49,402 nt of DNA, from assembly GCA_043793345.1 (NCBI GenBank), contig JAYVXF010000094.1:1-49402 (forward strand), in the 5' to 3' direction. The DNA comes from Betaproteobacteria bacterium. Lineage in GTDB: Bacteria > Pseudomonadota > Gammaproteobacteria > Burkholderiales > Usitatibacteraceae. The translations under genes were made by a program, and so were the position numbers. Of the stretch, positions 1,060-21,163 are shown one piece after another. Position 1 is the stretch's first letter. Each line of letters opens with the position of its first letter. Under the pieces are notes generated by a model. That model searched no databases, was not told where the DNA came from, and was given only the letters and a program-made list of their open reading frames with translations.

Positions 1060-2595
1060 TCATGGTTTAGACGTGCGAAGTAGCGCGTTCTCCAACTCTC
1101 CGCCCATGTCACGGGTGAATTCTTGCAGCAATTTTGAAGACCCGTCCGAGGACTCATTTGCGCTGGTATAAATTGCAACCCAGGCCGACCCGCCATGTAC
1201 GCCATGCAGGCGAGTGAGAAGTTGCTGAAATTTTGCATTAAAGTCACTTGCAGTAGATACCCCATTAATCCAATACCAGTGCCATGCAAGAACTCTACCC
1301 GTACGACCAAGTATTACGCCGGTTTTTGCTTCGAGAGGTAAACCTGATATTTCAGTCTGTACGATGCCTCGATCCGCCAGGTTCCAGCTCGACTTATCCC
1401 CGCCGGCTAGTTGGTTGGACACAGTTACCAGCTTGGATTCCCAGGTTTCATTTCGAAAGATGCCGACAAAAACACTGACCCGACGTCCGGCTTTTTCAAA
1501 AACCTGCACGCGGAGCAATGAAGGGTTACTGAGTTCCGGGGCCCATTCCAGTGTCGAATTTTCAACCGGCGACCAGCCAGCCTGCGGTGAGATATCTGCT
1601 ACTTCCATCGGGCCCGATATCGTCTGAAACTGCAACCGAGATTCGTACAGTGGCCAAACTGCCAATGTGAACGCAATCAGAACGGAAACAGCCAGGAGCC
1701 GGGGTACAGACGGCCCGCGCAAAGGGGACGAATTTGTGGCGACGCCATTGAGATCAAGTGAAATGTTGTCGCCTGCGGACGGCTCCGCATCGCGATAGCG
1801 CAGCCCAAACCAGCAAAAAAAGAATAGAAATACGGCGAACAGCAGCCAGCCAAAAGTGTAGTGATCCTCGCGAAGAAATCGATTATCACTATGGTGCGCG
1901 ACCATCATCGTCAGATAAACGCGGATCCAGTTACCCACTACGCCAATAACGGTCGCGCCCAAGATGAAAAAAACACGTTTCATCGTAGAACGATAAATTG
2001 TCCATGCGTAAAGTACGCCAAGCAAAAGGCAAGTACTTAGGAACGCTACCCCGCTGCAGGTATCGGCGACGGCCCACGTACCGCTGGGAAGGACAAAATA
2101 CGCTCCCTCGCGGTATATCGGAACGCCTGATGCTCGGATGCCCAACTCGGCGAACTTCGCAGTCCATTTCACCAAGGTAGGAACCAGTGGGCTCCAGATC
2201 GGAACCGCAAACATCAACACGAAAAATGGAAAAGCCATTGCGGCCAACCAGCGAAATCCAAGCAATGTCAGCACGGCCATTGGAACCATCGCGAGCACGG
2301 CAAGCTGCGTGAAAACGCGGGTGAAGACAAGCTGGCCCGCCAGCCAAATAAATCCCAATCCAATCAGCCCGAAGAATCCAAACAAGAAGGGACGAATCGG
2401 CAGTACGGCAAGTTTGGCGCGCAGATTCCAAATGAGCACCAAAACGACGAAGACGACGAGCGCACTGTGGGAAGAGTAATCTGTGATCCTCCCAAACCCC
2501 AGTAAATAAGCGGTAGTCGGCCAGTAAATGCACGCGACTGAAATGAAGATTGCGGCTACGCTAAGAGGCCCGATGACAAACGCGCGACCAGTCAT
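1060..2595 (-). CDS. xrtA: Exosortase A (XrtA/EpsH) fused to a C-terminal EpsI-family domain
   Basis: 511 aa with a polytopic N-terminal half. Exosortase signature residues are present: ADTCSGV (catalytic Cys), GNWIRVY (Arg) and AHHSDNRF...DHYTFGW (His). After a further TM segment, the C-terminal ~210 aa (WPLYESRL...WHWYWINGV...) resembles the periplasmic EpsI family. ATG start at 2595. Confidence 0.85.
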   Translation of the reverse strand: MTGRAFVIGPLSVAAIFISVACIYWPTTAYLLGFGRITDYSSHSALVVFVVLVLIWNLRAKLAVLPIRPFLFGFFGLIGLGFIWLAGQLVFTRVFTQLAVLAMVPMAVLTLLGFRWLAAMAFPFFVLMFAVPIWSPLVPTLVKWTAKFAELGIRASGVPIYREGAYFVLPSGTWAVADTCSGVAFLSTCLLLGVLYAWTIYRSTMKRVFFILGATVIGVVGNWIRVYLTMMVAHHSDNRFLREDHYTFGWLLFAVFLFFFCWFGLRYRDAEPSAGDNISLDLNGVATNSSPLRGPSVPRLLAVSVLIAFTLAVWPLYESRLQFQTISGPMEVADISPQAGWSPVENSTLEWAPELSNPSLLRVQVFEKAGRRVSVFVGIFRNETWESKLVTVSNQLAGGDKSSWNLADRGIVQTEISGLPLEAKTGVILGRTGRVLAWHWYWINGVSTASDFNAKFQQLLTRLHGVHGGSAWVAIYTSANESSDGSSKLLQEFTRDMGGELENALLRTSKP

Positions 2596-3080
2596 TCAGC
2601 ACCGTCAGGCAATATTTGTGCATCGCATTGCCACCCACAGGCAAAAGAGGCGTTGCGTGCGATCCAAAACAATATTTTCGCCCCAATGTGCATGCTATTT
2701 CCCCTTTCCCAAAGCACCATCGGTCAACAGCAAAATCCGCGTCATGGCCCTTAATTCTTCCGTTTCCCCGGCTCCCAAAGCCACGCAGCGTTACACTCTT
2801 AACTAATTGTACATGCTGCATAGGCTGACATAAGCGCCCATTGCTCATGGGGCCGACGAAACTGGAGCAGTCTTGTCCGTTCGAGGCCACTGGGCGACCC
2901 TGAGCCGTCAAATTCCCAAAGCGAATTCACGTACGCTCCAAAGCACTGTTTCTGAACCCGCTTCAATTTAGACGCGCTCGTTTGGTGAGTGGCAAGCAGG
3001 GAAGAAACACGAACAATTTTATGCAGGCGTATCCGTCGCACTTTCAGGAAGTTTCGTAGTAGACGCCGAATGCCACCTGT

Positions 3081-3108
3081 AAAAATAAATACCCCGCCAA
3101 GGCGGGGT
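3081..3108 (-). terminator. Rho-independent terminator downstream of the PEP-CTERM gene
   Basis: On the minus strand the sequence is ACCCCGCC-TTGG-CGGGGT followed by ATTTATTTTT. It lies about 40 nt after the stop codon at 3147-3149. Confidence 0.7.
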
Positions 3109-3146
3109 ATCGGTGTAGCGCTAGGGGAAAATCAACAGTGCGTTAA

Positions 3147-3824
3147 TTAAGCGAGTACAGACTTGCGCCGCACGAAGCCAAGACCAAGGAGTCCCAGTCC
3201 GAGTAGTCCCAGCGTTGTGGGTTCGGGCACGTTGGCGGGCGGATCCACTACGGTGACTACGCCAACAGTTGCGAAGCCGCCACCCTCGCCGGAGGTGATT
3301 GTGATGACATTGGCCAAATTGAACCCATTAGTGGTGTTTATAGTGCTGCTACCGCTGGCAGAAAACACCCCACCCGTAAATGACCCTAGGCTATTCAGGG
3401 CGATACCGTTAAGTAACGATCCGACAGTGACCGTGCCACTGGTAATCCCGCCCGTCGATGTGCGCGCGGCTAGATTGGTGCCAAAAGGGTTGATGAGGTT
3501 AGGGTCGGACAAAATAATTGTCAGCGTGCCGGCACCACGCGAGCTGAAATCGCTGGAGAGCAAATTGAGGAACGCAGGTTGACCCTCCGGGGCAGGCGAA
3601 TTCGAGATACCGGTGGTTACATTAGCGAACCAAGAGCCCAGACCGCCAGAGAAATGAACAATGCCGACGGTCGGATCGGTGTCGCCAATGCCGTTATCTT
3701 CAACGCTAATGGAGTTCTCCCCAGAACTCAACGTGAGAATCATGGTTGCATTTGCAAAAGTGGCACTGACCGACAAGACGCCGGTCGTCAAAATTGTCGT
3801 AATAATCTTCTTGATATTTTTCAT
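3147..3824 (-). CDS. PEP-CTERM sorting-domain protein (secreted Gly/Ser/Thr/Asn-rich exosortase substrate)
   Basis: 225 aa. The N-terminal signal peptide is MKNIKKIITTILTTGVLSVSATFANA. The C-terminus VPEPTTLGLLGLGLLGLGFVRRKSVLA is the canonical PEP motif followed by a TM helix and a basic cluster. Confidence 0.9.
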   Translation of the reverse strand: MKNIKKIITTILTTGVLSVSATFANATMILTLSSGENSISVEDNGIGDTDPTVGIVHFSGGLGSWFANVTTGISNSPAPEGQPAFLNLLSSDFSSRGAGTLTIILSDPNLINPFGTNLAARTSTGGITSGTVTVGSLLNGIALNSLGSFTGGVFSASGSSTINTTNGFNLANVITITSGEGGGFATVGVVTVVDPPANVPEPTTLGLLGLGLLGLGFVRRKSVLA

Positions 3825-3894
3825 ATGCGTTCCGAAAAAATAGCGGTCGGTTATTGTTGGTGAGTAAGTTATTTATACCTGCCGAGACTTAAGA

Positions 3895-3909
3895 GCAACT
3901 CGCATGCCA
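3895..3909 (-). promoter_or_regulatory. Sigma-54 (-24/-12) type promoter for the PEP-CTERM gene
   Basis: The minus strand reads TGGCAT-GCGAG-TTGC. This has the exact GG-N10-GC spacing of the TGGCAC-N5-TTGCW consensus and lies about 70 nt upstream of the ATG at 3824. It is consistent with PrsR/sigma-54 control as described for PEP-CTERM loci. Confidence 0.6.
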
Positions 3910-4089
3910 TCAGAAAAAAATACCTAACAAACAATGCATTAGAACTTAATGTGAAAGTCGGCCTTAGTTATAAAAGATAATGTGTAAAATTTTTTGACAG
4001 GCTTAGCGATGCGCCAACCGTCGGAACAGAATTCCCATTAGATAGGTGGACTCTTCCGTCGGTCATGCCACCGGTTTGAGCCGCTGGGT

Positions 4090-4450
4090 GGCTAAGTAAA
4101 CTTCACCAAGCGTCCTACCGTCAAGAGACGAGTGCGTACGGAAGCGATTGTAGCAATGCAGCAGGCGTCCGATGGACTGCAGGACAGGACTTGGCTGACA
4201 CTGTCGATACGCCTACAATTATTCCTTCGCGTACTTCCTTTGGCGGGATAGCGGATCGATGAATACATCGTCGAGCCAGCTCCCTTTCCATCCATGCAGG
4301 TCTGGACGCTTGCCGCCTTGAGAGCTTCCGTGAAGGCGGCGCTGGCGAAATGGCGGCCCTGATCGTCTTTCATGATCTTGGACTTGCCGTAGCGACGAAT
4401 GGCTCGACTGGGATTGTCTTTGCACGATTGCTCGGTGCAGTGGAAAGAGC
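4090..4450 (-). pseudogene. Decayed IS3-family transposase (OrfB/integrase C-terminal) remnant
   Basis: The minus-strand translation has to be pieced together across three frames and two stop codons. The pieces are KIMKDDQGRHFASAAFTEALKAASVQTCMDGKG / SWLDDVFIDPLSRQRKYAKE* / AYRQCQPSPVLQSIGRLLHCYNRFRTHSSLDGRTLGEVY. This tracks the IS3 OrfB tail pattern (DQG.QFTS..F...L....I..SMDGKG.WLDNVFIERLWRSLKYE..Y...Y.S...A...I..Y...YN..R.HSSLDG.TP.EVY). No N-terminal part or terminal inverted repeats were recognised. Confidence 0.7.
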
Positions 4451-4558
4451 AAGCGCAAGTTAGAATCAAAGTTGATTGATGCAAAATTTGATTTACTAAA
4501 CCAATATTTTTTTGGTTTTTTACATACGCTTCAATCACTTTACAAGAGCCTTTTCAAC

Positions 4559-6544
4559 ATGTGCGGCATCGCAGGAATTCTGACCAACTCTTCCAGTAAG
4601 CCGCCTGAGCGTGCCGAACTTTTTGCAATGATCGCGCGCCTGCATCATCGTGGTCCGGACGGAACCGGCATATTGATTGATGGCGCGATTGGACTCGCCC
4701 ACGCGCGCTTGAGCATCATCGATCTTGCGGGAGGCCAACAGCCGATTCACAACGAGGATCGGACGGTTCAAGTGGTGTTCAACGGCGAGATTTTTAATTA
4801 CCTTGAGCTGCGCAAGCGGCTAATCGAAAAAGGCCACCAGTTTTATACGCAGACCGACACGGAAGTCATCGTTCACCTGTATGAAGAACACGGCGAGCGA
4901 TTCGTTGATCACCTTAACGGCCAGTTCGCGATTGCGCTTTGGGATGCGCGGCGGCAGAGCTTGGTGCTCGCGCGCGACCGCACTGGGATCCGGCCGCTGT
5001 TCTACACCGAGGCCGCTGGGCGTTTCGTATTTGCCTCCGAAATAAAGGCGCTGTTTGCGTTGTCCGAGGTGCGTCGATGCATCGATTCCCAAGCACTGGT
5101 CGAGACCTGCACGTATTGGTCGCCCCTGGCTCCACGCACTGCGTTCGAGGGTGTGACATCGTTGCCGCCTGGTCACGTGATGGTTTTAACGGAGGGCGTG
5201 CGCAGCTTGCATCAATATTGGGACTGGACTTTTCCCGATGCTGAGCAGGGACGAAACAACGGCCTTAATCGTTCCGAAGCTGACTACGCGGCAGAGCTGC
5301 GCGAGCTTCTGATCGACGCGGTACGCCTGCAGCTGCGCGCGGATGTGCCGGTTGGCGCGTACTTGAGCGGCGGGCTGGATTCGTCCATCATCACCTCGAT
5401 CATTCGCAATTTCTCGGACACACCGCTGCGGACGTTTTCGCTAACGTTCGAAGACGCCGAATTTGACGAAAGCACACATCAAAAAGAATTGGTCGATTAT
5501 CTTGACACCGAACACACCTCGATACGCTGCACGCGAGCCGACATCGCGGCCGCTTTTCCGCGCACCGTATTGCACACTGAATCGACGATTGTTCGCACCG
5601 CACCCGCGCCACTCATGTTGCTGTCAGGCCACGTTCGTGAAGCAGGCTACAAGGTGGTGTTGACGGGCGAGGGAGCCGATGAAGTCTTCGGTGGCTACGA
5701 TTTATTCAAAGAAGCAAAGATACGTCGCTTCTGGGCGCGATCACCGGACTCAACCTCGCGGCCACGCATCCTTGAGCGTTTGTATCCGTATCTAAAAAAT
5801 TCTCCCGCCACTGGTCGCGCGTTCACGCAGGCATTTTTTCGCGATGGCATGGAGCATGTCGACGAGCCCTACTTCGCACACATTCCGCGCTGGACCACGA
5901 CTCGTCGCATCCACCAATTTTTTTCCCGCGAGGTGCGTGACGCTATTGGCGATTGGGATCCATACGGTGCAATTTTGGCGACGCTGCCGAGTGGCATAAA
6001 TCGCTGGAAACCGATGGCGCGTGATCAATATGTGGAGGCGCATACATTGATGACCGGCTATTTACTCTGCTCGCAAGGTGACCGCGTGGCAATGGCAAAT
6101 TCCATCGAAGGGCGCTTTCCGTTTCTTGACCATCGCCTGATCGAATTCGCCAACCAGCTTCCGCCACAACTTAAATTGCACGGCCTCACCGAAAAATACC
6201 TGCTCAAAAAATCAATGAAAGGACTGCTGCCTGAAACGGTGCGCACGCGCACCAAGCAGCCTTATCGTGCGCCCGACAGCCAAAGCTTTTTCAATGCTGG
6301 GGTTCCGGTGGATTACGTCGCCGAATTATTCAGCGCGCCGAAAATCTCATCCGCAGGATATTTTGAAGCTTCTGCCACGGCCAAATTATTCGAGAAGTGT
6401 CGCGCCGGTCGCGCCATTGGTTTCGCCGACAATATGGCATTCGTCGCGATCTTATCGACGATGTTGCTGCACGAACAATTCATCCTCGGGCACGACTTGA
6501 GTGCGGTGGGGCATGTATCTGCGCCGCGCTCGCTCTCAACCTGA
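4559..6544 (+). CDS. Asparagine-synthase-family glutamine amidotransferase (exosortase A locus-associated type)
   Basis: The start is reassigned to the ATG at 4559, giving MCGIAGIL, because class-II Ntn amidotransferases need Cys2. The track start at 4472 is a TTG 29 codons upstream. The PP-loop LSGGLDSSIITS is in the synthase domain. Product is 661 aa. Confidence 0.85.
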   Translation: MCGIAGILTNSSSKPPERAELFAMIARLHHRGPDGTGILIDGAIGLAHARLSIIDLAGGQQPIHNEDRTVQVVFNGEIFNYLELRKRLIEKGHQFYTQTDTEVIVHLYEEHGERFVDHLNGQFAIALWDARRQSLVLARDRTGIRPLFYTEAAGRFVFASEIKALFALSEVRRCIDSQALVETCTYWSPLAPRTAFEGVTSLPPGHVMVLTEGVRSLHQYWDWTFPDAEQGRNNGLNRSEADYAAELRELLIDAVRLQLRADVPVGAYLSGGLDSSIITSIIRNFSDTPLRTFSLTFEDAEFDESTHQKELVDYLDTEHTSIRCTRADIAAAFPRTVLHTESTIVRTAPAPLMLLSGHVREAGYKVVLTGEGADEVFGGYDLFKEAKIRRFWARSPDSTSRPRILERLYPYLKNSPATGRAFTQAFFRDGMEHVDEPYFAHIPRWTTTRRIHQFFSREVRDAIGDWDPYGAILATLPSGINRWKPMARDQYVEAHTLMTGYLLCSQGDRVAMANSIEGRFPFLDHRLIEFANQLPPQLKLHGLTEKYLLKKSMKGLLPETVRTRTKQPYRAPDSQSFFNAGVPVDYVAELFSAPKISSAGYFEASATAKLFEKCRAGRAIGFADNMAFVAILSTMLLHEQFILGHDLSAVGHVSAPRSLST

Positions 6545-6566
6545 GCACGCGAAGTAAGGAACCTGC

Positions 6567-8111
6567 ATGCTGCTCCACCATTTTTTTGACCAGACCACCG
6601 AACGCTTACCCGACAAAGCCGGACTGATTTGCGATGGCAAGCAATACACCTACGCGGAGCTCGACGCACGTATCGCACAACTGGCGACGATGCTGCGCCA
6701 GCGCGGCGTTAACCATGGTGACCGCGTGGCACTTTTTCTGGACAACAGTCTTGAAATGGTCGTGGGTGTCTTTGCTGCGCTGCGAATCGGTGCGGTGTTC
6801 ATGCCCGTCAACGCCCTGACCAAGCACGACAAACTCGCCTTCATACTTAACGACGCGCGCGCCAGTGCGCTGATTACGCATGAAGCTTTGCGTGGAATAT
6901 GGCAACACGCGCTTGGTGCCAATTCATCGATTCACACTTGCATTGTCGTTGGCGATGCCGCCGTTGAAATAGCCACCAGCACAAAGGCTGAGCGATGCGT
7001 GCCTTATCCGCCGCCATCTGCGCCGTTGCAAAACGCGGATCACGCCACGCAATTGATCGATCAGGATCTCGCCGCGATCATCTACACCTCCGGCTCGACC
7101 GGCCACCCAAAGGGCGTGATGCTCACGCATCTCAATATGGTTTCGGCGGTGCGCTCGGTGAGCGGCTATCTTGGCCTCGCACAAGCCGACGTGATTCTGT
7201 GTGCGCTGCCGCTGGCATTTGACTATGGGCTTTATCAGTTGCTGATGGCGTTCAAGGTGGGTGCCACGCTGGTACTTGAGCGCTCGTTTACGTTTCCAAT
7301 CAAAGTACTCGAGGCAATGGCTACGGAACGCGTGACCGTATTCCCTGGCGTGCCGACGATGTTCTCATTGCTGATGAATTTGAAGGGGCTGGAAAAATTT
7401 GATCTGGCGTCATTGCGCATGATTACTAATACAGCAGCGGCATTATCGGAGGAACACATTCGCCGTTTGCGCGCGCTTTTTCCGCAGGCAACATTGTTTT
7501 CGATGTACGGGCTGACCGAGTGTAAGCGCGTCACTTACCTGCCGCCCGAGCAGTTGGACATTCGACCCACCAGCGTCGGTCGCGGCATGCCAAACGAAGA
7601 GGTTTGGTTGGTTGACGATGTGGGCCAGCGCTTGCCCAACGGCAACACCGGTGAGCTCGTCATTCGCGGCTCAAACGTCATGCGCGGCTACTGGGAAAAT
7701 CCATCAGAGACCGCGAAGCGACTTAAAGCTGGCCCGAACCCGGGCGAAATGGTGCTTTATTCGGGCGATCTTTTTCGCACCGATGACGAGGGCTGGCTAT
7801 ACTTCGTGGCGCGTCGCGATGACATCATCAAGAGCCGCGGCGAGAAGGTCAGTCCGCGCGAAGTGGAGAACGCAATTTACAGCCTGGAGGGCGTATTGGA
7901 GGCGGTGGTGATTGGCGTTGCCGATGAATTATTGGGTGAGGCAATCAAGGCGTATGTCGTGCAGAAAGAAGGTTTCGCGCTCACCGAACGCGAGGTAATT
8001 CGACACTGCCTCGGACGACTGGAAAATTTTATGGCACCGAAATACGTGGAGTTTGTGTTGGAATTGCCGAAGACGGATACAGGTAAAATTAAACGGACGG
8101 GGCTCGTTTAA
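6567..8111 (+). CDS. AMP-forming acyl-CoA/acyl-carrier ligase (adenylate-forming superfamily; exosortase A-associated type)
   Basis: Adenylation core motifs are present: IYTSGSTGHPKGV, GELVIRG, YSGDLF, RRDDIIKSRGEKVSPREVE and PKTDTGKIKR. An AAGGA SD lies 6 nt before the ATG at 6567. Confidence 0.85.
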   Translation: MLLHHFFDQTTERLPDKAGLICDGKQYTYAELDARIAQLATMLRQRGVNHGDRVALFLDNSLEMVVGVFAALRIGAVFMPVNALTKHDKLAFILNDARASALITHEALRGIWQHALGANSSIHTCIVVGDAAVEIATSTKAERCVPYPPPSAPLQNADHATQLIDQDLAAIIYTSGSTGHPKGVMLTHLNMVSAVRSVSGYLGLAQADVILCALPLAFDYGLYQLLMAFKVGATLVLERSFTFPIKVLEAMATERVTVFPGVPTMFSLLMNLKGLEKFDLASLRMITNTAAALSEEHIRRLRALFPQATLFSMYGLTECKRVTYLPPEQLDIRPTSVGRGMPNEEVWLVDDVGQRLPNGNTGELVIRGSNVMRGYWENPSETAKRLKAGPNPGEMVLYSGDLFRTDDEGWLYFVARRDDIIKSRGEKVSPREVENAIYSLEGVLEAVVIGVADELLGEAIKAYVVQKEGFALTEREVIRHCLGRLENFMAPKYVEFVLELPKTDTGKIKRTGLV

Positions 8112-8142
8112 CCGGAGTCAGCAAGCCCGCTTTACAAGATGT

Positions 8143-8207
8143 AGACACAGCATTAGAGCGGCTTTCAGGGCATAAGTGCCCTGGAGTGCCCGCTAATGCT
8201 AGTGTTT
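8143..8207. repeat. Intergenic palindromic repeat, family A, copy 1
   Basis: AGACACAGCATTAGAGCGGCTTTCAGGGCATAAGTGCCCTGGAGTGCCCGCTAATGCTAGTGTTT. The outer arms are imperfectly complementary and the centre is a perfect CAGGGCA-TAAG-TGCCCTG stem. It shares the GCATT.G.GCGG head and the GCTAGTGTTT tail with the copy at 26801. Confidence 0.5.
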
Positions 8208-8246
8208 ACTAATTAATAATCTCCATTATTTTCGGCCTGGGAAATT

Positions 8247-8507
8247 ATGCAAGACATCAAGAATTTGGTTCGCAAGTTTCTTCTGGATAATTTTGTGATG
8301 GGCGGAAACATTGTCATCAATGACGATACTTCGTTTATGGCCGCCCACATACTCGACTCCACCGGATTCATTGAATTGATCCTTTTCATCGAAGAAACTT
8401 TCGACGTAAAAGTAGATGATGCCGAAATGCTGCCGGAAAATTTTGACAGTCTCATCAATATTGACGGCTATGTTGAACACAAGCGCGTCGCTGTTGCAAG
8501 CAGCTAG
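8247..8507 (+). CDS. Acyl carrier protein
   Basis: 86 aa and acidic, with the phosphopantetheine-attachment motif HILDSTGFIELILFIEETF. It lies directly downstream of the ligase. Confidence 0.75.
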   Translation: MQDIKNLVRKFLLDNFVMGGNIVINDDTSFMAAHILDSTGFIELILFIEETFDVKVDDAEMLPENFDSLINIDGYVEHKRVAVASS

Positions 8508-8535
8508 CCGACACAACGCCAACGCAACCGACGCA

Positions 8536-9525
8536 ATGAGCACGCCAACGCTGCACCCGGATATTCTCGCGTTGGACTGCGAAGCCGAAGCGAATCGCAT
8601 CGCACAGCGAATGCTTGAGATTGTCGGCAGCCAATTGCGCCGACGTGGCGTGATTATCGCGATCTCTGGCGGCGTCGACAGCGCGGTCTGCGCCGCACTC
8701 GCCGTTCGCGCGTTCGGCACTTCGAAGGTGTATGGATTGATGCTGCCCGAAACAGACTCTTCGTCCAACAGCTTGCGGCGCGGCAAACTGGTTGCTGAAC
8801 AATTCGCTATCCCGTTCAGCGTAGAGAATATCGCGCCGACTCTTGAGGCGCTTGGCTGTTATCGCTGGCGCGATGAGGCGATCCGCGCGGTGTTTCCCGA
8901 TTTCGGGCCGGATTGGAAAAGCAAAATTGCGATTGCAGGCGGTCGCGACGGTGCGTTCAATTATTTTAAATTGGTCGTGCAATCACCAACCGGTGAGCTG
9001 CATGAAAAGCGCCTGCCACCGCGCGAATATCTGCAAATCGTTGCCGCCACCAGTTTCAAACAGCGGGTGCGAAAGATGCTGGAATATTTCCACGCCGATC
9101 GACTCAATTACGCCGTCATCGGCACGCCCAACCGTCTGGAATACGATCAGGGATTCTTCGTTAAAAATGGCGATGGTGCGGCCGACCTGAAACCCATCGC
9201 CCATCTATACAAGACCCAGGTGTATGCATTGGCAAGGCATCTCTGCATTGCCGACGAGATCTGCAACGCTGCACCGACCACCGACACCTACAGTCTGCAA
9301 CAAGGCCAGGACGAATTTTATTTCGCGCTGGCCTATGACAAAATGGATATCGCGCTCTGGTCATTCAATCACAGCGTGCCCGAGGAAGAGCTGGCAGCCT
9401 TTCTGGGCATGCTGCCAAGCCACGCCGCGTTTATTTACAAAGACATCATCGCCAAACGCCACGCGACCCGCTACCTGCACGCCAGGCCGGTGTTGGTCGA
9501 GCCGGTGGCAGAGCTTCCTGTTTGA
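8536..9525 (+). CDS. NAD+ synthetase (NadE)-like PP-loop ATP pyrophosphatase paralogue
   Basis: PP-loop ISGGVDSAVCAALAV lies about 44 residues from the proposed ATG at 8536. NadE-like motifs IGTPNRLEYDQGFFVKNGDGAADLKPIAHLYKTQVYALARHL are present. The track start at 8416 would overlap the ACP by 92 nt, so I rejected it. There is no clear SD, so the start is moderately uncertain. Confidence 0.7.
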   Translation: MSTPTLHPDILALDCEAEANRIAQRMLEIVGSQLRRRGVIIAISGGVDSAVCAALAVRAFGTSKVYGLMLPETDSSSNSLRRGKLVAEQFAIPFSVENIAPTLEALGCYRWRDEAIRAVFPDFGPDWKSKIAIAGGRDGAFNYFKLVVQSPTGELHEKRLPPREYLQIVAATSFKQRVRKMLEYFHADRLNYAVIGTPNRLEYDQGFFVKNGDGAADLKPIAHLYKTQVYALARHLCIADEICNAAPTTDTYSLQQGQDEFYFALAYDKMDIALWSFNHSVPEEELAAFLGMLPSHAAFIYKDIIAKRHATRYLHARPVLVEPVAELPV

Positions 9526-9559
9526 TTTCATCAGCCGCTTGTCAAGGCTCCGACCAGAA

Positions 9560-11584
9560 ATGACCTCTGTTGCGAGCGGTGAAAATATTCATGAAAATTT
9601 GACGCCAGCAGCGTTGACACTTTTTCATCAATGCTTGAACGAGCTCTCGTCGGCGCTCAATGCCCTGCCTGATAAACCGGACGAAACACCGATCAGTACG
9701 CTTGCAGCACTTTGGCATACCGCAGCAGGTCGACCAATCTCGGCGAAGCGCGCGGTTGCAGACGCATTGCCCGAGTTGGATCAAGCTGCGATCACGAAAT
9801 TGGCTGCGCTCTTAACGGATCGCATCGCGGGCATCCCGCTGGCCTACCTCACCGGTCGGCAGCAATTCATGGGTGTGGAGCTTTTTGCCAGCGATGCAGC
9901 GCTTATTCCGCGTGAGGAGACCGAGTTGCTGGGCACTGCTGCGCTCACGCAATTGCGCGCGGTGGTGCGCGAGCAAGGCCATGCCACGGTGCTCGATGTT
10001 TGTACAGGATCGGGTAACCTTGCACTGGCGCTTGCGTGGCACGAGCCGCACGCGCGCGTCTGGGCGGCCGACCTTTCCGAGGACGCCATCGCGCTGGCGC
10101 GCCGCAATCTTGCCCACCTCGGTCTGGCCAGTCGCGTCGAGTTCCGTACTGGCGATCTATTGGCGCCATTTGATACGCCGGCGTTTCATGGAATTGTCGA
10201 CTTGCTGATTTGCAATCCGCCATACATATCAAGCGGAAAAGTCGACGGAATGCCCGGGGAAATTATAGGCCACGAGCCGCGACTGGCATTTGATGGCGGC
10301 GCGCTGGGAATTCGAATTTTATTGCGATTGATTTCTGAAGCGCCGCGCTTTTTGCGGCCCGGCGGCTGGCTTGCGTTTGAACTCGGGCTTGGACAGGGCC
10401 CGGGCATTCGCAAGCGGCTTGAACAGGGCGGTGGTTACGTTGATATTAATGAAGTCATCGACAGGAATGGTCAGATACGCGCTTTGATTGCGCGCCTGCC
10501 TCAGCCGAAAGGGCAGGCGCTAGTCGAGCAAAACAACGACAGCGGAAACGCCTATTCAGTCGTTGTCGCCAACGTAATGGCAGATGGAGAAAAAATTCGT
10601 TCGCTTTGGCGCACGGGTCTAAACGCTGCCACGTTGGGCGAGGCTAAATTTGATTGGTACTATCAGCGAAACCCGGATGGCGCGCCGGACGCATTGATGT
10701 TGCTCCACAGCGGCAATGCAGACGCCGTGGGTGTCGCCGCTGTGGGGCACCGCCGTATGCGATTTAACAACGTGATGTTGCTAACCGCCGTAACCGTGGA
10801 TTTTGTTGTACACCCGGAACATCGAACCCTGTTTCCCGCATTGTTACTGCAAAAGGAAGTGTGCAGGCGCGCGCTACAAATGCACCATGTGGTCTGGGGA
10901 TTGCCAAACCTCAATGCCACTGCGGTGTTTAGCCGCGCTGGCTATCAATTGGTTGGCCAGATGGTGCGTTACGCCCGCGTTTTGCGTTCCGCAGAGTATT
11001 TGGCACGCCACCTTTCCCCATGGACGAGCCGCGTGGCGGGCGCAATTGTTGATTGGATACTGTTGGGGATTCTCGCCTGGCGCAAACCAAGGGCACGCAG
11101 TTATCTCACCAAATGGCAGCAGCGCCCGGACGCCCGCTTCGACGATCTCTGGCAGCGAAGTGCTGCGCCCGACCAATTGATGGGTGTGCGCGATGAGCAG
11201 TATCTGACCTGGCGATTCGGCGACTACCTGCTTCGAGCCTATTCGTTTTTCACCCTTGCGTCCGCCGTGGATCAACGTCTTATCGGTTACGCGGTGTGCG
11301 AAATTGACCAGCAGTCGTTGCACGTCCGCGATTTTCTGATCGATCCCAATATAGCCGGGGCGGCGGCATATCTCTGGCACAGCTTGGTTCGGGAGGCGTA
11401 TCGAAAGGGTCTTGCGAGTCTTTCCGTTGAGTTTCATGGCGGTGAGCTTGTACAGGAAGAATTAAAAGACGCCGGGCTGACCGCGCGCCATCAAACGCCT
11501 CTGTATGCCGCACTCGCGGATAAGTCGCGGCCGCTGTTGCAAGGGCGGCACTGGTATCTTACCTGCGCGGACGTAGACGGCTAA
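9560..11584 (+). CDS. Fusion protein: HemK/PrmC-like SAM-dependent methyltransferase with a tandem GNAT/FemAB-like acyltransferase domain
   Basis: The N-terminal ~300 aa carry the SAM motif VLDVCTGSGNLALALA and motif IV LLICNPPYISSG (NPPY). The C-terminal ~360 aa contain two GNAT-like halves (GVAAVGHRRMRF...DFVVHPEHR...SRAGYQLVG and IGYAVCEIDQQSLHVRDFLIDP...REAYRKGLASLSVEF...LKDAGL). The start is moved to the ATG at 9560, because the track start at 9224 overlaps the NadE-like CDS in another frame. Confidence 0.7.
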   Translation: MTSVASGENIHENLTPAALTLFHQCLNELSSALNALPDKPDETPISTLAALWHTAAGRPISAKRAVADALPELDQAAITKLAALLTDRIAGIPLAYLTGRQQFMGVELFASDAALIPREETELLGTAALTQLRAVVREQGHATVLDVCTGSGNLALALAWHEPHARVWAADLSEDAIALARRNLAHLGLASRVEFRTGDLLAPFDTPAFHGIVDLLICNPPYISSGKVDGMPGEIIGHEPRLAFDGGALGIRILLRLISEAPRFLRPGGWLAFELGLGQGPGIRKRLEQGGGYVDINEVIDRNGQIRALIARLPQPKGQALVEQNNDSGNAYSVVVANVMADGEKIRSLWRTGLNAATLGEAKFDWYYQRNPDGAPDALMLLHSGNADAVGVAAVGHRRMRFNNVMLLTAVTVDFVVHPEHRTLFPALLLQKEVCRRALQMHHVVWGLPNLNATAVFSRAGYQLVGQMVRYARVLRSAEYLARHLSPWTSRVAGAIVDWILLGILAWRKPRARSYLTKWQQRPDARFDDLWQRSAAPDQLMGVRDEQYLTWRFGDYLLRAYSFFTLASAVDQRLIGYAVCEIDQQSLHVRDFLIDPNIAGAAAYLWHSLVREAYRKGLASLSVEFHGGELVQEELKDAGLTARHQTPLYAALADKSRPLLQGRHWYLTCADVDG

Positions 11585-11681
11585 TGCAGGCCTGTCCAAG
11601 TGAGGTGGCAAAAACCGATTTTCGTGTTTGGCGAGGTGCGAATTCGGTAGAACCAATTTGAAGAGCCCTTACGAAGGCCGG

Positions 11682-12806
11682 TTATGAGGGCTTTTTTTCG
11701 GTCGCATCAACCGGGGGCAAACGATCAATCAGTCGCACCAGAAGATCCAACGATGCGGAGTGACTGCGTTCGAGCCGCACCATGGTGCGTTCGAGCCGCA
11801 GCATGCTTTCCTCGACCCGAAGCCACCGTGCTATCGCATCACTGCGACTCAAGCCGAACGCGATTGAGTGCACGTCCTCGGCATCGTCGTAATCATGCCC
11901 TGCGGTAGCCGGGTAATGATTTCCGGCAAGTAAATTATCCGCGTTCGACAACGCGCCGATATGAGCAGCATGATGCGTCGAAGATCTTGGTGCGAGCGTC
12001 TCACTACTCATTTCTCCGGCGACTTCATGCACATCCTCACGTGTAAACACGCGTTTTTCGGCAAGAAATCCTGACAATAGCAAGCGGTCACAGACGGCAT
12101 TGATACGTCGTGGCACCCCGCCGCTGGCCGCAAAAATCGCCCCGAAAGCGTCGGGCTCAAATTGCGGCGAATCTTTCCACCCAACGCACGTCAGGCGATG
12201 CTCAACGTACCCGCGCGTTTCCTCTTCGTCCATCGGGCCGATATGGCATGCCGCGATGACCCGCTGACGTAACTGCTGCATTTGCGGGCTCTGCAGAATA
12301 TGTCGAAATTCCGGCTGGCCGATGAGGAAGCTTTGTAACAGTGCGTGCGTATCAAGCTGAAAATTCGACAGCATGCGCAATTCTTCAACCGCGCGCGGCG
12401 TAAGGTTTTGCGCTTCGTCGACCACCAAAAGGCATCGCTTGCCCTGTTTTGCAACTGACACCAGAAAAGCCTCAAGCGAGAGCAGCAAATTCGCTTTGTC
12501 GGTTTGTTTGGTTGGAATGCCGAACGCTGACGCGACCATCCTAAGCATATCGTCAGCGTCCAATTGTGTGCTCACCAGATTCGCGGCAACCACTTGCTCC
12601 GGATCCAGTTTGGCGAAGATATTGCGAACCAGCGTCGTCTTGCCGGCACCGACCTCACCGGTGATCACGATGAATCCCTCGTTTTGATGCAATCCATACT
12701 CGAGGTAGGCCATCGCGCGCCGGTGCTGGCGGCTGCCAAAATAAAATGATGGGTCAGGGTTAAGTTGAAAAGGCTTCTTGGTCAGCCCATAAAACGATTC
12801 GTACAT
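11682..12806 (-). CDS. ExeA/GspA-like AAA ATPase (PEP-CTERM system-associated ATPase type)
   Basis: The N-terminus MYESFYGLTKKPFQLNPDPSFYFGSRQHRRAMAYLEYGL is typical of the ExeA family. Walker A is GEVGAGKTT and Walker B is LLVVDEAQ. Confidence 0.85.
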   Translation of the reverse strand: MYESFYGLTKKPFQLNPDPSFYFGSRQHRRAMAYLEYGLHQNEGFIVITGEVGAGKTTLVRNIFAKLDPEQVVAANLVSTQLDADDMLRMVASAFGIPTKQTDKANLLLSLEAFLVSVAKQGKRCLLVVDEAQNLTPRAVEELRMLSNFQLDTHALLQSFLIGQPEFRHILQSPQMQQLRQRVIAACHIGPMDEEETRGYVEHRLTCVGWKDSPQFEPDAFGAIFAASGGVPRRINAVCDRLLLSGFLAEKRVFTREDVHEVAGEMSSETLAPRSSTHHAAHIGALSNADNLLAGNHYPATAGHDYDDAEDVHSIAFGLSRSDAIARWLRVEESMLRLERTMVRLERSHSASLDLLVRLIDRLPPVDATEKKPS

Positions 12807-12820
12807 TTGCGTGCTGCCTG

Positions 12821-14545
12821 TTAGTACCGAAGTGAAACCGACGCCAGAGCGGCATTTTCCCGGTAACTTGTGTTCAAGGAATTGTCGAGATGCACGCGCC
12901 GGGCACCGAAAGCGACATAGGTATTTTGTCCCACACGGGTTGAAAAAAGCAGGTTAAGCGAACGCTGCCTGGTATCCAACCCAGCGATGGACAAACCTTC
13001 GGTTCGTAACGATGTCGCGATCAACGATATCGATGATAGTGGGGACAGTCTGTGCGCCCAGTTTAAATTGAAGCCTTGTTGCAATATGTCGTTGCTCAAT
13101 GAAAAACTATCCGTTGCACCAATAGTTGAGCCAAATGCTCGCTGATTCCTTCGGGAAAATATCAAGGCAACGGTATTTTTTATTCCCACGAGTGCGACAG
13201 AAGCCTCTTCGCTTCGGCTGAGAATCGGTCGTCCGGTCGCAAAACCGCCGTTCAATGCCGAGCCCGCAGGGATGCCTGATTCCTCCAGCTTTTTACGCAC
13301 CGCCGCTTCGCGTGCAATCGGATCCGGAATCGCGGAGATCAAAAGATCAGATAACAAGCCAGCGGTAGAGCCTGAGCCGGTTGCCGTCAATTGACCGGGC
13401 AATGCGGTGACATCGCGGTTGCTGGTGAAGCTCCAAAGGGTAAGCGCGGTGCGATGTTTGAAAATAACGCTATGACCCTCGCCGAAAAAACGTTTTTCTT
13501 TCACCGCCGCAAACTGGGTACTTGCGCTCGGCGACCACTCCAGGCCAAAACCGGACGTACTGGCGCGATTTTTTTGTAAGCCCGCAAAATTGGTGGACTC
13601 GCTGCCAACGATTGCAGACACGTGTATCTGTGGATCAACTTCGTAAGACAGTGAGCCACGAATGCGCTCATCGAACGACTTGCCGACAACATTATTGCGG
13701 AATGTCAGCGCGTTCCCGTCGAGCGACCAGCCAAAACCGGAAATCGCACGGCCATTTTTTATGAAACCAGCCCATTGCCTGGCTATGGTATCTGGGAGTG
13801 CCGGGTCTTTCGAACGAATGTCAGCCGCAACAAACCTGAGCTGATAAGACGCGAGCTCGAGGAGCTTACCGTTGATACGTGGTGAAATTTGGGTGGTCGT
13901 TGTTTCAATTCTATTGCCATTTGGGCCAGTCGTGTCTGTCGCCCCGGCAATGCTGAAGGCAGAGCGGTTTTGTTGCGTAATGTTTGCGCTCGCGTCAACG
14001 AACAGCCAATTATCAATCGCCTCGACCACCGCATTGGAAGCCAGCAGACGTTGGGTATTGTTAAGCCGCGAATCACCAGAGTACCGAAAATCACGCAAAC
14101 GGTAATCCAGATAAATTTTTGACCGTACGCCTCTCTTTTCGATGCGAATTCCGGGAGTGGATTCTGTTACCCAGCTTTTCTTTGCGATTGCAGCCGGTAT
14201 CAGCGCGGCATTGTCGGTGTAGCTTTCGACCAGACTGATTTCAGGCGTGATGCGCCATGCAGTGACAGCCGCTACCGGTGCGGTGCTTGGCGGCGCGGCG
14301 GGCTCAGATTGGGCGACACTTCCTGTTGACATACAGGCGACCCCGCACGCAGTCGCCAGTGCCGCTACAACACAAACCAGGCTTGCTGGCGCGGTCCGCT
14401 GATCAAACGCGTTCTCACCGATCCGGCGGATACCTGCTGGGGTCAATGCTCGCCTCTTTGCGTCAGCGCCACAGCCATAGTCTGAAAATCGCTTCATCAA
14501 TGCGCTAATTGTAGCCGTAGCCATATCCGTACGCACCCTGCGCAA
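12821..14545 (-). CDS. Predicted outer-membrane beta-barrel protein of the PEP-CTERM locus
   Basis: A hydrophobic signal-like segment SLVCVVAALATACGVAC is followed by a long sequence of alternating-pattern beta-strand character, ending in an aromatic residue (SLRY). It sits between epsG and the ATPase, as in other XrtA loci. The start is uncertain: the ATG at 14545 overlaps epsG by 41 nt, and alternatives are 14524 and 14497 (MKRFSDYG). Confidence 0.6.
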   Translation of the reverse strand: MRRVRTDMATATISALMKRFSDYGCGADAKRRALTPAGIRRIGENAFDQRTAPASLVCVVAALATACGVACMSTGSVAQSEPAAPPSTAPVAAVTAWRITPEISLVESYTDNAALIPAAIAKKSWVTESTPGIRIEKRGVRSKIYLDYRLRDFRYSGDSRLNNTQRLLASNAVVEAIDNWLFVDASANITQQNRSAFSIAGATDTTGPNGNRIETTTTQISPRINGKLLELASYQLRFVAADIRSKDPALPDTIARQWAGFIKNGRAISGFGWSLDGNALTFRNNVVGKSFDERIRGSLSYEVDPQIHVSAIVGSESTNFAGLQKNRASTSGFGLEWSPSASTQFAAVKEKRFFGEGHSVIFKHRTALTLWSFTSNRDVTALPGQLTATGSGSTAGLLSDLLISAIPDPIAREAAVRKKLEESGIPAGSALNGGFATGRPILSRSEEASVALVGIKNTVALIFSRRNQRAFGSTIGATDSFSLSNDILQQGFNLNWAHRLSPLSSISLIATSLRTEGLSIAGLDTRQRSLNLLFSTRVGQNTYVAFGARRVHLDNSLNTSYRENAALASVSLRY

Positions 14546-15434: not shown

Positions 15435-15443
15435 TAACAGTCC

Positions 15444-16997: not shown

Positions 16998-17065
16998 CTA
17001 ACATCCGTTTGAAATTCGATGGCGGCGACCGCAAATTCATCGACGTTGTGACGCGCGAAAATAAC

Positions 17066-17683
17066 CTAAAACCAACTTTGCGGAATGATTAAAACGTCGC
17101 CCGGTCTCATCTCGACGTTGGCGGAAACGTCGCCACGTTTGATCAGGTCTTTGATACGAACCCGATACTGTTTGTTGCCATCCGCGGTTCGCAGCAACGT
17201 GGCACCATTGCCGTCAGCAAAATCGGTAATTCCACCGACGGCGATCATCACATCCAGCAGCGTCATTTTTTGCTTGTATGCAAGTGCCTGCGGTTTCGTT
17301 GCCTCGCCAACTACCCGAACCTGCTCGGCGTACTGACCGACGAAATTGGTCACGACGACGGTCACGACCGGATCGCGAATAACTTTCGACAGCGCCTTTT
17401 CGATGTCGCGTGCCAGAGTTGTCGCATCTTTTCCCAAGGCCGGTAAATCTTCGACCAGCGGGGCGGCAATTTTGCCATCGGGCCGCACCGGTACGACCAT
17501 CGACAACTCTGGATTTCGCCACACGACAATGCTGACCGTATCACCCGGACCGATGACGTATTTGTAATCCGGCGAAGCGGCAAGGGCAGGTGCTTGCGGG
17601 AGTGAGCTACAGCCGCCAACGATAACCATCACAGCCGATGCAATAACCAAACCAACGGCACGAGCCAACAGACGTGTTTGCAT
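17066..17683 (-). CDS. epsE: Polysaccharide export outer-membrane lipoprotein (Wza/Poly_export family, EpsE type)
   Basis: Lipobox VGGCSS, the Poly_export motif YVIGPGDTVSIVVW, and an SLBB-like C-terminus. A strong GGGAGGAAGT SD precedes the ATG. Confidence 0.85.
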   Translation of the reverse strand: MQTRLLARAVGLVIASAVMVIVGGCSSLPQAPALAASPDYKYVIGPGDTVSIVVWRNPELSMVVPVRPDGKIAAPLVEDLPALGKDATTLARDIEKALSKVIRDPVVTVVVTNFVGQYAEQVRVVGEATKPQALAYKQKMTLLDVMIAVGGITDFADGNGATLLRTADGNKQYRVRIKDLIKRGDVSANVEMRPGDVLIIPQSWF

Positions 17684-20390: not shown

Positions 20391-20404
20391 CCGCACACGG
20401 AGAC

Positions 20405-20472: not shown

Positions 20473-20514
20473 GCTGGCTGGTGACAATAGCTCGCGCTGA
20501 ACAGCCGGCTTGCG

Positions 20515-21159: not shown

Positions 21160-21163
21160 GAAA

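Follow-up and report, generated by a model that had tools for sequence, protein, structure and literature searches.

A recurrent adenylation enzyme, carrier protein and amidotransferase cassette in an exosortase A locus: a candidate pathway for decoration of surface polysaccharides

Known systems and the present locus

A group of five adjacent genes is analysed here, located on the + strand at positions 4559-11584 of a 49,402-nucleotide stretch of DNA from a betaproteobacterium that the GTDB places in the Usitatibacteraceae (GenBank assembly GCA_043793345.1, contig JAYVXF010000094.1, positions 1 to 49,402; the whole stretch is called the window below). These genes, which lie in a locus of exosortase A (XrtA) and are referred to as the cassette, encode an AsnB-type glutamine amidotransferase, an adenylation enzyme (ligase), a small carrier protein, a NadE-like PP-loop ATPase, and a HemK-like methyltransferase fused to a tandem GNAT-fold domain. 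The first four recur together across bacterial phyla, and we tentatively propose that they serve in the decoration of cell-surface polysaccharides.

Among the described systems, the exosortase A-associated gene set (TIGR03098, TIGR03108, TIGR03099, TIGR03100/03101, TIGR03019 and TIGR03006) occupies a like position, beside the XrtA export operon, and its models TIGR03098 and TIGR03108 are the best specialised NCBIfam matches of the cassette ligase and amidotransferase, respectively, both below their cut-offs. The partner sets differ, as a preliminary description of the window had anticipated: a pyridoxal phosphate (PLP)-dependent decarboxylase and hydrolases in the exosortase A set, a NadE-like enzyme and a HemK-like methyltransferase/GNAT protein in the cassette. 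With VinN/VinL/VinO, BolO/BolC/BolN and BtrI/J/K, the cassette shares the pocket of a stand-alone adenylation enzyme and a free-standing carrier protein; furthermore, in systems of the VinN/VinL/VinO type the next modification falls on the free alpha-carboxyl of the aspartyl unit on the carrier, as we propose for the cassette. The next step, however, is PLP-dependent decarboxylation followed by hand-over to a polyketide synthase or nonribosomal peptide synthetase (NRPS) in the former, whereas in the cassette it would be ATP-dependent amidation, N-methylation and, probably, transfer to a glycan. The settings differ accordingly, a polyketide cluster in one case and polysaccharide export in the other.

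The Wbp/Vim pathway of Porphyromonas gingivalis and Tannerella forsythia (VimE deacetylase, VimA, WbpS) places an amino acid on an amino sugar and forms an amide with an AsnB-type enzyme, and what it makes serves to fix C-terminally sorted proteins to a glycan of the cell surface. This pathway includes a CE4 deacetylase, and one also adjoins several cassette loci, but Wbp/Vim employs a FemAB/TIGR03019-like enzyme and has no carrier protein, ligase, NadE-like enzyme or methyltransferase. In the Dlt (DltABCD) and AlmEFG systems, an adenylation enzyme and a small aminoacyl carrier serve an envelope acceptor, as in our proposal, but the amino acid is transferred unmodified, without amidation or methylation on the carrier and without AsnB-like or NadE-like partners; moreover, DltB belongs to the MBOAT family whereas the window cassette has a cytoplasmic tandem GNAT instead. 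The housekeeping enzymes AsnB, NadE and PrmC/HemK have folds and motifs in common with the cassette proteins (the Cys2 glutaminase, the PP-loops and NPPY), and differ in that the cassette genes are linked to a carrier protein and fused to one another, and in the extra beta-sheet of the NadE-like protein. Finally, SbzI of the altemicidin pathway is reported to be a GNAT-fold enzyme that takes a donor tethered to a carrier protein (PMC11685415), as we propose for the fifth cassette protein, and synthases of N-acyl amino acids have been reported beside XrtA/PEP-CTERM loci; the C-terminal half of the fifth protein is a tandem GNAT without a Pfam model and displayed no sequence similarity to either in the tests run.

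Neither a NadE-like enzyme nor a HemK-like methyltransferase belongs to the exosortase A set, VinN/VinL/VinO, Wbp/Vim or Dlt/Alm. Literature searches yielded no paper describing the cassette, only analogies, and no NCBIfam model was found for the cassette or for the methyltransferase/GNAT protein; apparently, then, the module is undescribed, as had been supposed from the outset. We rate it as a case of carrier-protein-dependent tailoring of envelope polymers, a kind of process already known.

A widespread four-gene core

In the window, the amidotransferase gene occupies positions 4559-6544 (the open reading frame, ORF, extends upstream to 4472, with MCGIAG encoded from the ATG at 4559), the ligase gene 6567-8111 (514 residues), the carrier protein gene 8247-8507 (86 residues), the NadE-like gene 8536-9525 (329 residues), and the methyltransferase-GNAT fusion gene 9560-11584. 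All five are on the + strand, with gaps of 22, 135, 28 and 34 nucleotides and no strong terminator-like site between them on that strand, and form one operon-like unit. The preliminary description had read this arrangement, and the nature of the first four products, from the sequence alone; ORF calling recovered the same genes and gaps, all the quoted motifs are present in the translations, and profile searches agree on the amidotransferase, the ligase, the NadE-like protein and, weakly, the carrier.

The distribution of the cassette was assessed with two scans. A genome scan with one genome per GTDB species, seeded with an alignment of the methyltransferase, returned at least 590 relatives; a tblastn census of its 80 best loci and nine loci fetched earlier (together, L001-L089) found all five parts in 44 of the 89 loci and four parts in 13, in a shuffled gene order. 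In a metagenome scan seeded with the NadE-like protein, 39 loci of at least 6 kb were counted; an acyl carrier protein (ACP) and/or ligase stands beside the NadE-like gene in 35 of them, 31 of which contain the AsnB-like gene too; of the 18 long loci, only 10 have the methyltransferase. The AsnB-like protein, the adenylation enzyme, the carrier and the NadE-like protein occur side by side in more than 70 retrieved loci, which represent at least 10 phyla. In the genome scan, the hosts comprise Gamma-, Beta- and Alphaproteobacteria (Rhodanobacter, Luteimonas, Mesorhizobium, Bradyrhizobium) along with Bacteroidota, Ignavibacteriota, Chlorobiota, Verrucomicrobiota, Planctomycetota, Gemmatimonadota, Myxococcota, Chloroflexota and Desulfobacterota. 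Clustering of the ORFs of L001-L089 and the first 24 kb of the window revealed no further universal cassette gene. The core of the cassette is four genes, with the methyltransferase as a frequent fifth part and the tandem GNAT as an accessory sixth; thus, of the five-gene module originally outlined, the core stands, and the methyltransferase and GNAT have to be moved to the accessory parts.

Two cultured hosts illustrate the core. In Desulfurivibrio alkaliphilus AHT2, the order is Hexapep-AsnB-ligase-ACP-NadE-Hexapep, without a methyltransferase, and the cassette adjoins a deacetylase, XrtA-EpsI and a PEP-CTERM gene. Sinorhizobium meliloti 1021 carries the four-gene core as an operon on pSymB, near minCDE (NC_003078, ~1446-1451 kb; L173, 10157-14963), annotated as asnB, acyl carrier protein, class I adenylate-forming enzyme and nadE, with 50, 40, 53 and 56% identity to the first four window genes. 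A methyltransferase homologue lies ~12 kb from this core, beside exopolysaccharide-type genes; the methyltransferase-seeded match had initially looked like a lone methyltransferase, an impression overturned when the NadE-seeded search found the core at that distance. The core is also present on replicons of Ensifer, Shinella zoogloeoides, Azospirillum, Mesorhizobium, Rhizobium, Nitratireductor and Roseateles (a further copy is L174, 5157-9963). None of the Escherichia coli genomes has the cassette at the DNA level, hence there is no link to an O-antigen of known structure.

The ligase and the carrier protein

The ligase consists of the Pfam domains AMP-binding and AMP-binding_C, with the motifs YTSGSTGHPKG at residue 173, GEKVSPREVE at 425 and PKTDTGKIKR at 501. 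Its best-scoring model is TIGR03098, notwithstanding a score of 483.9 bits that falls below the cut-off of 592.35. Over the whole length, the best matches in the PDB are adenylation (A) domains of NRPS (LgrA, 1e-92), which come ahead of every acyl-CoA synthetase (malonyl-CoA synthetase, 2e-62), and the substrate-binding core is closest to VinN (3WV4/3WVN, 5e-44). The substrate of VinN is (3-methyl)aspartate, which the enzyme adenylates at the beta-carboxyl and loads onto a free-standing ACP, VinL; D230 of VinN binds the amino group, S299, K330 and R331 bind the alpha-carboxylate, F231 is needed, and the beta13-beta14 loop has one residue fewer than in A domains for alpha-amino acids (PMC11253843, PMC7756342). 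In a gapless alignment with equal loop length, D219/Y220/T289/K320/R321 of the cassette ligase correspond to D230/F231/S299/K330/R331 of VinN. These pocket residues are nearly invariant in 89 cassette ligases, within the motif FDYGLYQ..NTA..MYGLTECKR that is found in the S. meliloti and D. alkaliphilus cassettes as well. Given that the ligase keeps the VinN residues for an amino group and a free carboxylate, it probably loads an aspartate-like amino-dicarboxylate onto the carrier via the side-chain carboxyl, which is predicted to leave a free amine and a free carboxylate on the tethered unit.

The carrier protein gives a weak PP-binding match, with the predicted phosphopantetheine attachment site at Ser38 in ILDSTGF (LDSTGF starts at residue 36). 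Its NCBIfam matches are AmcB, Ols and DltC-type carriers, including the ornithine-lipid ACP model NF052616 at 42.6 bits against a cut-off of 130, and the best PDB matches are a peptidyl carrier protein (2MY5) and D-alanyl and aminoacyl carrier proteins, so that by sequence it resembles carriers of this kind more than fatty-acid ACPs. The product tethered to the carrier had been envisaged as an acyl or an aminoacyl amide; the VinN-like ligase and the aminoacyl-type carrier favour the aminoacyl version over the acyl one, and the order of steps, the product and the acceptor we infer as set out further below.

Two related observations concern the ligases of other loci. Those of L030 (8399-9928, an Ignavibacteriae metagenome-assembled genome, MAG) and L042 (8360-9949, a Gemmatimonadaceae MAG) score 563 and 504 bits with TIGR03098 and display the motif FDYG..NTG..TEAFR, in which the Asp and the Arg are kept and the Lys is lost. 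The combination of scores close to the TIGR03098 cut-off with these pocket motifs suggests that the canonical exosortase A-associated ligase likewise loads an amino-dicarboxylate, which would fit its partnership with a PLP-dependent decarboxylase, by analogy with VinN/VinO. In addition, a second type of cassette is found in L115, L121, L128, L137, L142, L144, L153 and L158 (e.g. L128, 6212-10990), with an AsnB-like protein, an ACP, a different ligase (~35% identical), a NadE-like protein and no methyltransferase. The ligase of this type 2 cassette has the motif YSYGNSV..MYGQTEA[ST]R and lacks the Asp235-equivalent and the Lys; L153 carries both ligase types. Type 2 cassettes often directly follow an XrtA export operon and a TIGR03006 deacetylase gene, and in L128 the cassette is followed by genes for an ATP-grasp protein, a second deacetylase, a GNAT and a DegT aminotransferase.

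Two amide-forming enzymes

The amidotransferase (661 residues) combines the Pfam domains GATase_7 and Asn_synthase and scores 517 bits with TIGR01536, in accord with its first description as a class-II glutamine amidotransferase fused to an asparagine-synthase domain. With TIGR03108, the XrtA/PEP-CTERM system amidotransferase, it scores 457.8 bits, below both the cut-off of 816.9 and the TIGR01536 score; the third-best NCBIfam match, at 357 bits, is TIGR03104, the amidotransferase for N-acetylglutaminylglutamine amide (NAGGN). Because the Cys2 glutaminase nucleophile (MCGIAG at residue 1) and the PP-loop (SGGLDSS at 270) are both kept, it is taken to be a true amidotransferase. Its orthologues, with 44-80% identity, adjoin other cassette parts in more than 70 loci.

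The NadE-like protein belongs to the Pfam family NAD_synthase (NF002048/PRK00876, 481 bits) and contains the motifs SGGVDS at residue 44 and GDGAADLKP at 212. It aligns to the Pyrococcus horikoshii NadE (2e18) in two pieces, on either side of an insertion at residues 106-174, a three-stranded beta-sheet of ~70 residues. Its AlphaFold2 (AF2) model, with a mean predicted local distance difference test score (pLDDT) of 84, has the fold of NH3-type NadE (template modelling score, TM, of 0.84 to 2e18 in Foldseek). The protein is unusually conserved, at 72-96% identity among its 120 best matches, and in the metagenome scan its homologue is linked to an AsnB-like gene, an ACP and a ligase. Notwithstanding the family assignment, it is probably not a NAD synthetase.

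The methyltransferase and the tandem GNAT

The N-terminal half of the fifth protein (9560-10534) is a HemK/PrmC-like S-adenosylmethionine-dependent N-methyltransferase: residues 63-309 match TIGR03534 at 200.5 bits, 1.4 bits above the cut-off of 199.1, and TIGR00536 at 174 bits, with NPPY at residue 219. The N-terminal domain of PrmC was not detected (PrmC_N, 17 bits against a cut-off of 23.4), and a family-specific motif, LPDKPEET..ALW, is conserved in its place. Methyltransferases with the NPPY motif, such as HemK/PrmC and the N6-adenine methyltransferases, act on amide- or amidine-type nitrogens. Homologues include full-length fusions down to 45% identity and stand-alone methyltransferases of ~400 residues with 55-62% identity. 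Furthermore, cassette parts are fused to one another in several combinations, namely methyltransferase::NAD_synthase (P0058, P0063, P0064), AMP-binding (ligase)::methyltransferase (P0066), methyltransferase::GNAT (P0067) and methyltransferase::hexapeptide acyltransferase (P0068, P0070). The fusions to the NadE-like enzyme suggest that the methyltransferase acts on the nitrogen that this enzyme installs.

A related domain occurs in an NRPS of L009 (10001-11731), in which a PrmC/HemK-like domain, 48-49% identical to the N-terminal half of the fifth protein, directly follows a peptidyl carrier protein; this is an unusual type for an NRPS methyltransferase and supports action on carrier-tethered substrates. 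In L001 (GCA_044229235.1), a gene for a SolA-like oxidase (11995-13170; PRK11259, 423 bits) follows the orthologue of the fifth gene with a stop/start overlap; SolA-like enzymes are oxidases of N-methyl-L-tryptophan and N-methyl-amino acids. The methyltransferase family has other partners too, given that in L017, L021, L025, L038, L048, L062, L073 and L078 its members have no detectable AsnB, ligase, ACP or NadE within 10 kb; in L048 (8573-10870, Nocardioides sp. T5) the methyltransferase is the C-terminal part of a 765-residue ORF.

What is the C-terminal half? Residues 326-674 (349 residues; the half is encoded at 10535-11584) have no above-threshold Pfam or NCBIfam match and no PDB match at the sequence level, the sole Pfam match in a scan of the full-length protein being a sub-threshold Acetyltransf_1. 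An AlphaFold model built from 16 homologues (pLDDT 88, predicted TM, pTM, 0.86) retrieves tandem-GNAT proteins in Foldseek, with E values from 1e-13 to 1e-11 and TM 0.55-0.66 over 330-380 aligned columns: the Eis-like proteins 2hv2, 2i00 and 3n7z, the tandem GNAT of the clavulanate pathway 2wpx, N-myristoyltransferases (NMT) and Eis. Judging from this model, the C-terminal half folds as a tandem GNAT of the Eis/NMT-like kind. The initial label of a HemK-like methyltransferase fused to a tandem GNAT/FemAB-like domain therefore holds for the methyltransferase and for the tandem GNAT, and FemAB likeness is confined to the level of the fold. Indeed, FemAB membership was rejected by sequence, with no match to FemAB, Acetyltransf_6 or TIGR03019 and a BLASTP E value of 0.17 against a true TIGR03019 member (L008, 341 bits); among the top 50 Foldseek matches, none is described as FemA or FemX. 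The C-terminal half also exists as stand-alone proteins of 371 residues (47% identity), and a tandem GNAT adjoins the cassette or is fused to one of its parts in 7 of 46 species-level and 4 of 18 metagenome loci.

Polysaccharide and exosortase context

Among L001-L089, the recurrent neighbours of the cassette are epimerase/dehydratases (10 loci), initiating sugar transferases (9), UDP-sugar dehydrogenases (8), DegT aminotransferases (8) and family 2 glycosyltransferases; immediate neighbours include MBOAT proteins in 8 loci, SnoaL-like proteins in 7 and hexapeptide transferases in 3. Markers of the XrtA system come within 10 kb in only 2 of the 46 loci from species-level genomes and 6 of the 18 from metagenomes, counts that are a lower bound, the window proteins having served as queries. 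Where an XrtA-type export operon is present, the genes follow a stereotyped succession from the export protein through the chain-length determinant, the kinase, the outer-membrane protein and the TIGR03015 ATPase, in some loci with the TIGR03006 deacetylase added, to the cassette. The operon directly precedes the cassette in L003, L100, L101, L121, L128, L137 and L171, the TIGR03006 deacetylase adjoins the cassette in L003 and L128, and XrtA itself is nearby in L008, L066 and L091.

In the window, an XrtA fused to EpsI is encoded at 1060-2595 on the - strand (TIGR03109, 214.7 bits against a cut-off of 208; TIGR02914 over residues 335-502), followed by a gene for a PEP-CTERM protein, by its context a substrate of XrtA, at 3147-3824 (-; TIGR02595 over residues 199-221, 27.9 bits against a cut-off of 16). 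On the other side, convergent with the cassette, lies the XrtA-type export operon (11682-17683, -), which encodes a TIGR03015 ATPase, a TIGR03016 outer-membrane protein, a TIGR03018 tyrosine autokinase, a TIGR03007 chain-length determinant and a TIGR03027 export protein, all above the curated cut-offs, and galE comes after it. A profile search of the flanks thus confirms the reported position of the cassette between the PEP-CTERM gene and the export operon. The preliminary description had seen no glycosyltransferase among the five genes; among ORFs of at least 150 residues in the whole window, no glycosyltransferase, deacetylase or FemAB gene was detected, and the window ORFs tested yielded neither an MBOAT nor a DltD-like gene.

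The positional link to XrtA export operons proposed on the basis of the window is, then, a recurrent one, with the cassette placed right after the TIGR03015 ATPase or TIGR03006 deacetylase gene. Specificity for XrtA, in contrast, has to be given up in view of the low counts above and the presence of the cassette on Sinorhizobium and Mesorhizobium replicons and in polysaccharide loci of Bacteroidota; most copies are in polysaccharide loci other than those of XrtA. The idea that the cassette is a general stand-in for the TIGR03019 FemAB gene was likewise rejected, since L008 contains a canonical TIGR03019 FemAB gene in addition to the cassette. A separate observation is that, in L092 (11975-13752), two alpha/beta hydrolase genes come directly after a five-gene cassette, with no XrtA genes within 10 kb of contig; the products score 53 and 85 bits, below the cut-offs, with the models 'hydrolase 1/2, exosortase A system-associated'.

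A possible pathway and its alternatives

So what could such a set of enzymes produce? The hypothesis that we tentatively favour, and consider quite possible although short of probable, is that the cassette builds an amidated, N-methylated aspartate-like group on the carrier protein and that this group is attached to a cell-surface sugar polymer. Judging from the conserved specificity residues, the ligase would activate the side-chain carboxyl of aspartate or a close analogue. The glutamine-dependent AsnB-like enzyme and the ammonia-type NadE-like enzyme would then carry out two ATP-dependent nitrogen transfers, with a carboxamide formed from the tethered unit's free carboxylate in at least one of them. 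The NPPY methyltransferase would methylate the new amide nitrogen, as HemK/PrmC does with glutamine, a step that its fusions to the NadE-like enzyme support, and the tandem GNAT half would pass the group from the carrier to an amine; this amine would belong to a precursor sugar or repeat unit of the exopolysaccharide that leaves through the neighbouring XrtA-type machinery. Hexapeptide, MBOAT or other acyltransferases would stand in for the tandem GNAT in other lineages. Of the two outcomes considered in the preliminary description, decoration of an exopolysaccharide and supply of the nucleophile or acceptor of XrtA, the former is the better supported, by the recurrent polysaccharide neighbours; the latter is weakened by the distribution of the cassette, on a refuting condition set in that description itself, but survives as a special case, made attractive by the free amine that a side-chain-linked aspartyl unit would offer.

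Several considerations weigh against this hypothesis. The specificity of the ligase is deduced from a single crystallised relative with ~35-40% identity. The type 2 ligase lacks the Asp, and therefore the AsnB/NadE-like chemistry that both cassette types share would be independent of an amino group. The SolA-like oxidase of L001 would fit methylation of an amine and not of an amide, and hints that an N-methyl amine may be formed or removed in that lineage. Around some copies of the cassette, a stretch of 10 kb is free of polysaccharide genes (S. meliloti pSymB, and L001, which is beside chemotaxis genes), and the window shows no glycosyltransferase, amino-sugar or deacetylase gene that would point to an acceptor. 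Furthermore, one of the two amide-forming enzymes is surplus if the tethered acid has a single free carboxylate. The second enzyme may amidate a uronate of the acceptor sugar, by analogy with WbpS; the two may act sequentially on one carbon, from carboxylate to amide to amidine or nitrile, for which precedents exist among PP-loop enzymes; or the substrate may be a tricarboxylate.

The alternative that survives best, albeit as an unlikely one, is that the product is a free small molecule, an amide-rich osmolyte or signal comparable to NAGGN or N-acyl amino acids, released from the carrier by a hydrolase. The stand-alone operons without polysaccharide neighbours, in S. meliloti pSymB and L001, would be readily accounted for in this manner, and the NAGGN amidotransferase match of the AsnB-like protein and the two hydrolases of L092, weakly similar to hydr1/hydr2_PEP, point in the same direction. 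However, acyltransferases of four kinds (tandem GNAT, GNAT, hexapeptide and MBOAT) are fused or adjacent to the cassette, which suggests transfer rather than hydrolysis, and most loci sit among genes for sugar nucleotides, glycosyltransferases and export.

An XrtA acceptor as the product is, rather than a true competitor, a special case of the favoured explanation, with the same chemistry and a specific purpose, and we regard it as rather improbable. Under this scenario, the cassette places an aminoacyl group on a sugar, and its free alpha-amine is joined to the C-terminus of the cleaved PEP-CTERM protein. The location of the window cassette between XrtA with its PEP-CTERM substrate and the export operon, the recurrent order of export operon, TIGR03015 ATPase, (TIGR03006 deacetylase) and cassette, and the free primary amine that a side-chain-linked aspartyl unit would offer are all compatible with it, and C-terminal sorting systems are known from the phyla of many cassette hosts. 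There is, by analogy, a precedent in the seryl-sugar anchor of the T9SS (type IX secretion system), the cargo of which becomes linked to 2-N-seryl (or glycyl)-3-N-acetylglucuronamide, a sugar that a CE4 deacetylase, the TIGR03019-like VimA and the AsnB-type WbpS produce; the authors of that work proposed an amino acid-modified sugar as the XrtA acceptor, too (PMC7468200). Against this, most loci have no XrtA-system gene within 10 kb, L008 combines the TIGR03019 FemAB gene with the cassette, which argues against a simple replacement, and the core is present on replicons of Sinorhizobium, Ensifer, Mesorhizobium, Shinella and Azospirillum. We know of no XrtA in these five genera. Still more doubtful is the fully specified version, in which an isoasparaginyl (side-chain-linked aspartyl) N-methylamide unit on a sugar of the exported polymer provides the alpha-amine as the nucleophile by which XrtA joins PEP-CTERM proteins; such an aspartyl sugar would play for XrtA the part that the seryl/glycyl linking sugar has in the T9SS.

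It is very unlikely that the target of the carrier-protein product is a membrane lipid or lipid A, in the manner of glycine addition by AlmEFG or of aminolipid synthesis. A ligase with an aminoacyl-type carrier does resemble the logic of DltA/DltC and AlmE/AlmF, the carrier weakly matches the ornithine-lipid ACP model, and MBOAT is an immediate neighbour in 8 loci, but genes for lipid A or lipid synthesis do not recur near the cassette, the recurrent neighbours being polysaccharide genes. Finally, the notion that the AsnB-like, NadE-like and methyltransferase genes are ordinary asnB, nadE and prmC that happen to lie beside a fatty-acid ligase and an ACP retains only a vanishing probability and is effectively already refuted, even though all three products pass NCBIfam cut-offs (asparagine synthase, the NAD(+) synthase subfamily and, by those 1.4 bits, PrmC) and public annotations carry these names, by the synteny with ACP and ligase in more than 70 loci across phyla, the fusions of cassette parts to one another and of the fifth protein to a GNAT, the 70-residue insertion of the NadE-like protein, and the absence of the methyltransferase from many cassettes, that of D. 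alkaliphilus among them. In S. meliloti, where the possible objection that these are the only copies in the genome could be checked, the curated core metabolic model assigns NAD synthase to the chromosomal smc00161 (nadE2) and not to the pSymB orthologue. Because of the synteny kept across phyla, the fusions between parts and this separate chromosomal nadE, we have to conclude that the cassette is a dedicated module rather than a set of housekeeping paralogues.

Other features of the window

Upstream of the PEP-CTERM gene, ~70 nucleotides from its start at 3824, there is a sigma-54-type -24/-12 element, TGGCATGCGAGTTGCT (3894-3909, -), with one mismatch to TGGCAC-N5-TTGCW; the motif is not enriched across the window (41 matches against 35 expected). 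PEP-CTERM genes dependent on RpoN have reportedly been found in floc formers, and the element fits with this. A strong terminator follows the gene (3111-3088, -). Between the PEP-CTERM gene and the cassette, a 148-residue ORF (4092-4538, -) with a weak, sub-cut-off match to the Pfam family rve (24.9 bits) is probably a remnant of an insertion sequence at the cassette border; it is also kept in L175, a 96%-identical relative that is collinear with positions 1241-20997 of the window. An apparent decay of asnB and nadE in L175 was ruled out, the fragments coming from two 100-N scaffold gaps.

At 19164-20435, two nearly coextensive ORFs occupy opposite strands; that on the + strand (19176-20390) belongs to the isocitrate/isopropylmalate dehydrogenase family (202 bits), and the longer one on the - strand, which has no matches, is probably spurious. 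Just past galE, at 20515-23256 (-), are genes for an alpha/beta hydrolase (Hydrolase_4, with a weak hydr1_PEP match of 33 bits), a VanZ-like membrane protein and a hexapeptide-repeat protein resembling gamma-carbonic anhydrase/PaaY. A chemosensory cluster at 39883-48595 (+), which is unrelated to the cassette, encodes CheW, a PilJ-type methyl-accepting protein (771 residues) and a ChpA-like multi-Hpt histidine kinase (1919 residues) with CheW and receiver domains.

Implications

In current annotations, the cassette goes under the names of asparagine synthase, NAD synthase and release-factor methyltransferase, which conceals a dedicated pathway and pollutes metabolic reconstructions with apparent nadE and prmC paralogues; the carriers affected include S. 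meliloti, the floc former Shinella, MAGs from activated sludge and the cultured D. alkaliphilus. If the favoured hypothesis is true, the cassette represents a new route of surface-polysaccharide decoration, in which an amino-dicarboxylate is amidated and its amide N-methylated on a carrier protein before transfer, and the canonical exosortase A-associated set of ligase, ACP and decarboxylase could follow the same logic, similar to that of VinN/VinL/VinO. The cassette is, furthermore, a concrete and testable candidate for the source of the exosortase A acceptor, and the four-gene core on pSymB of S. meliloti opens the pathway to genetics and biochemistry in a tractable organism.

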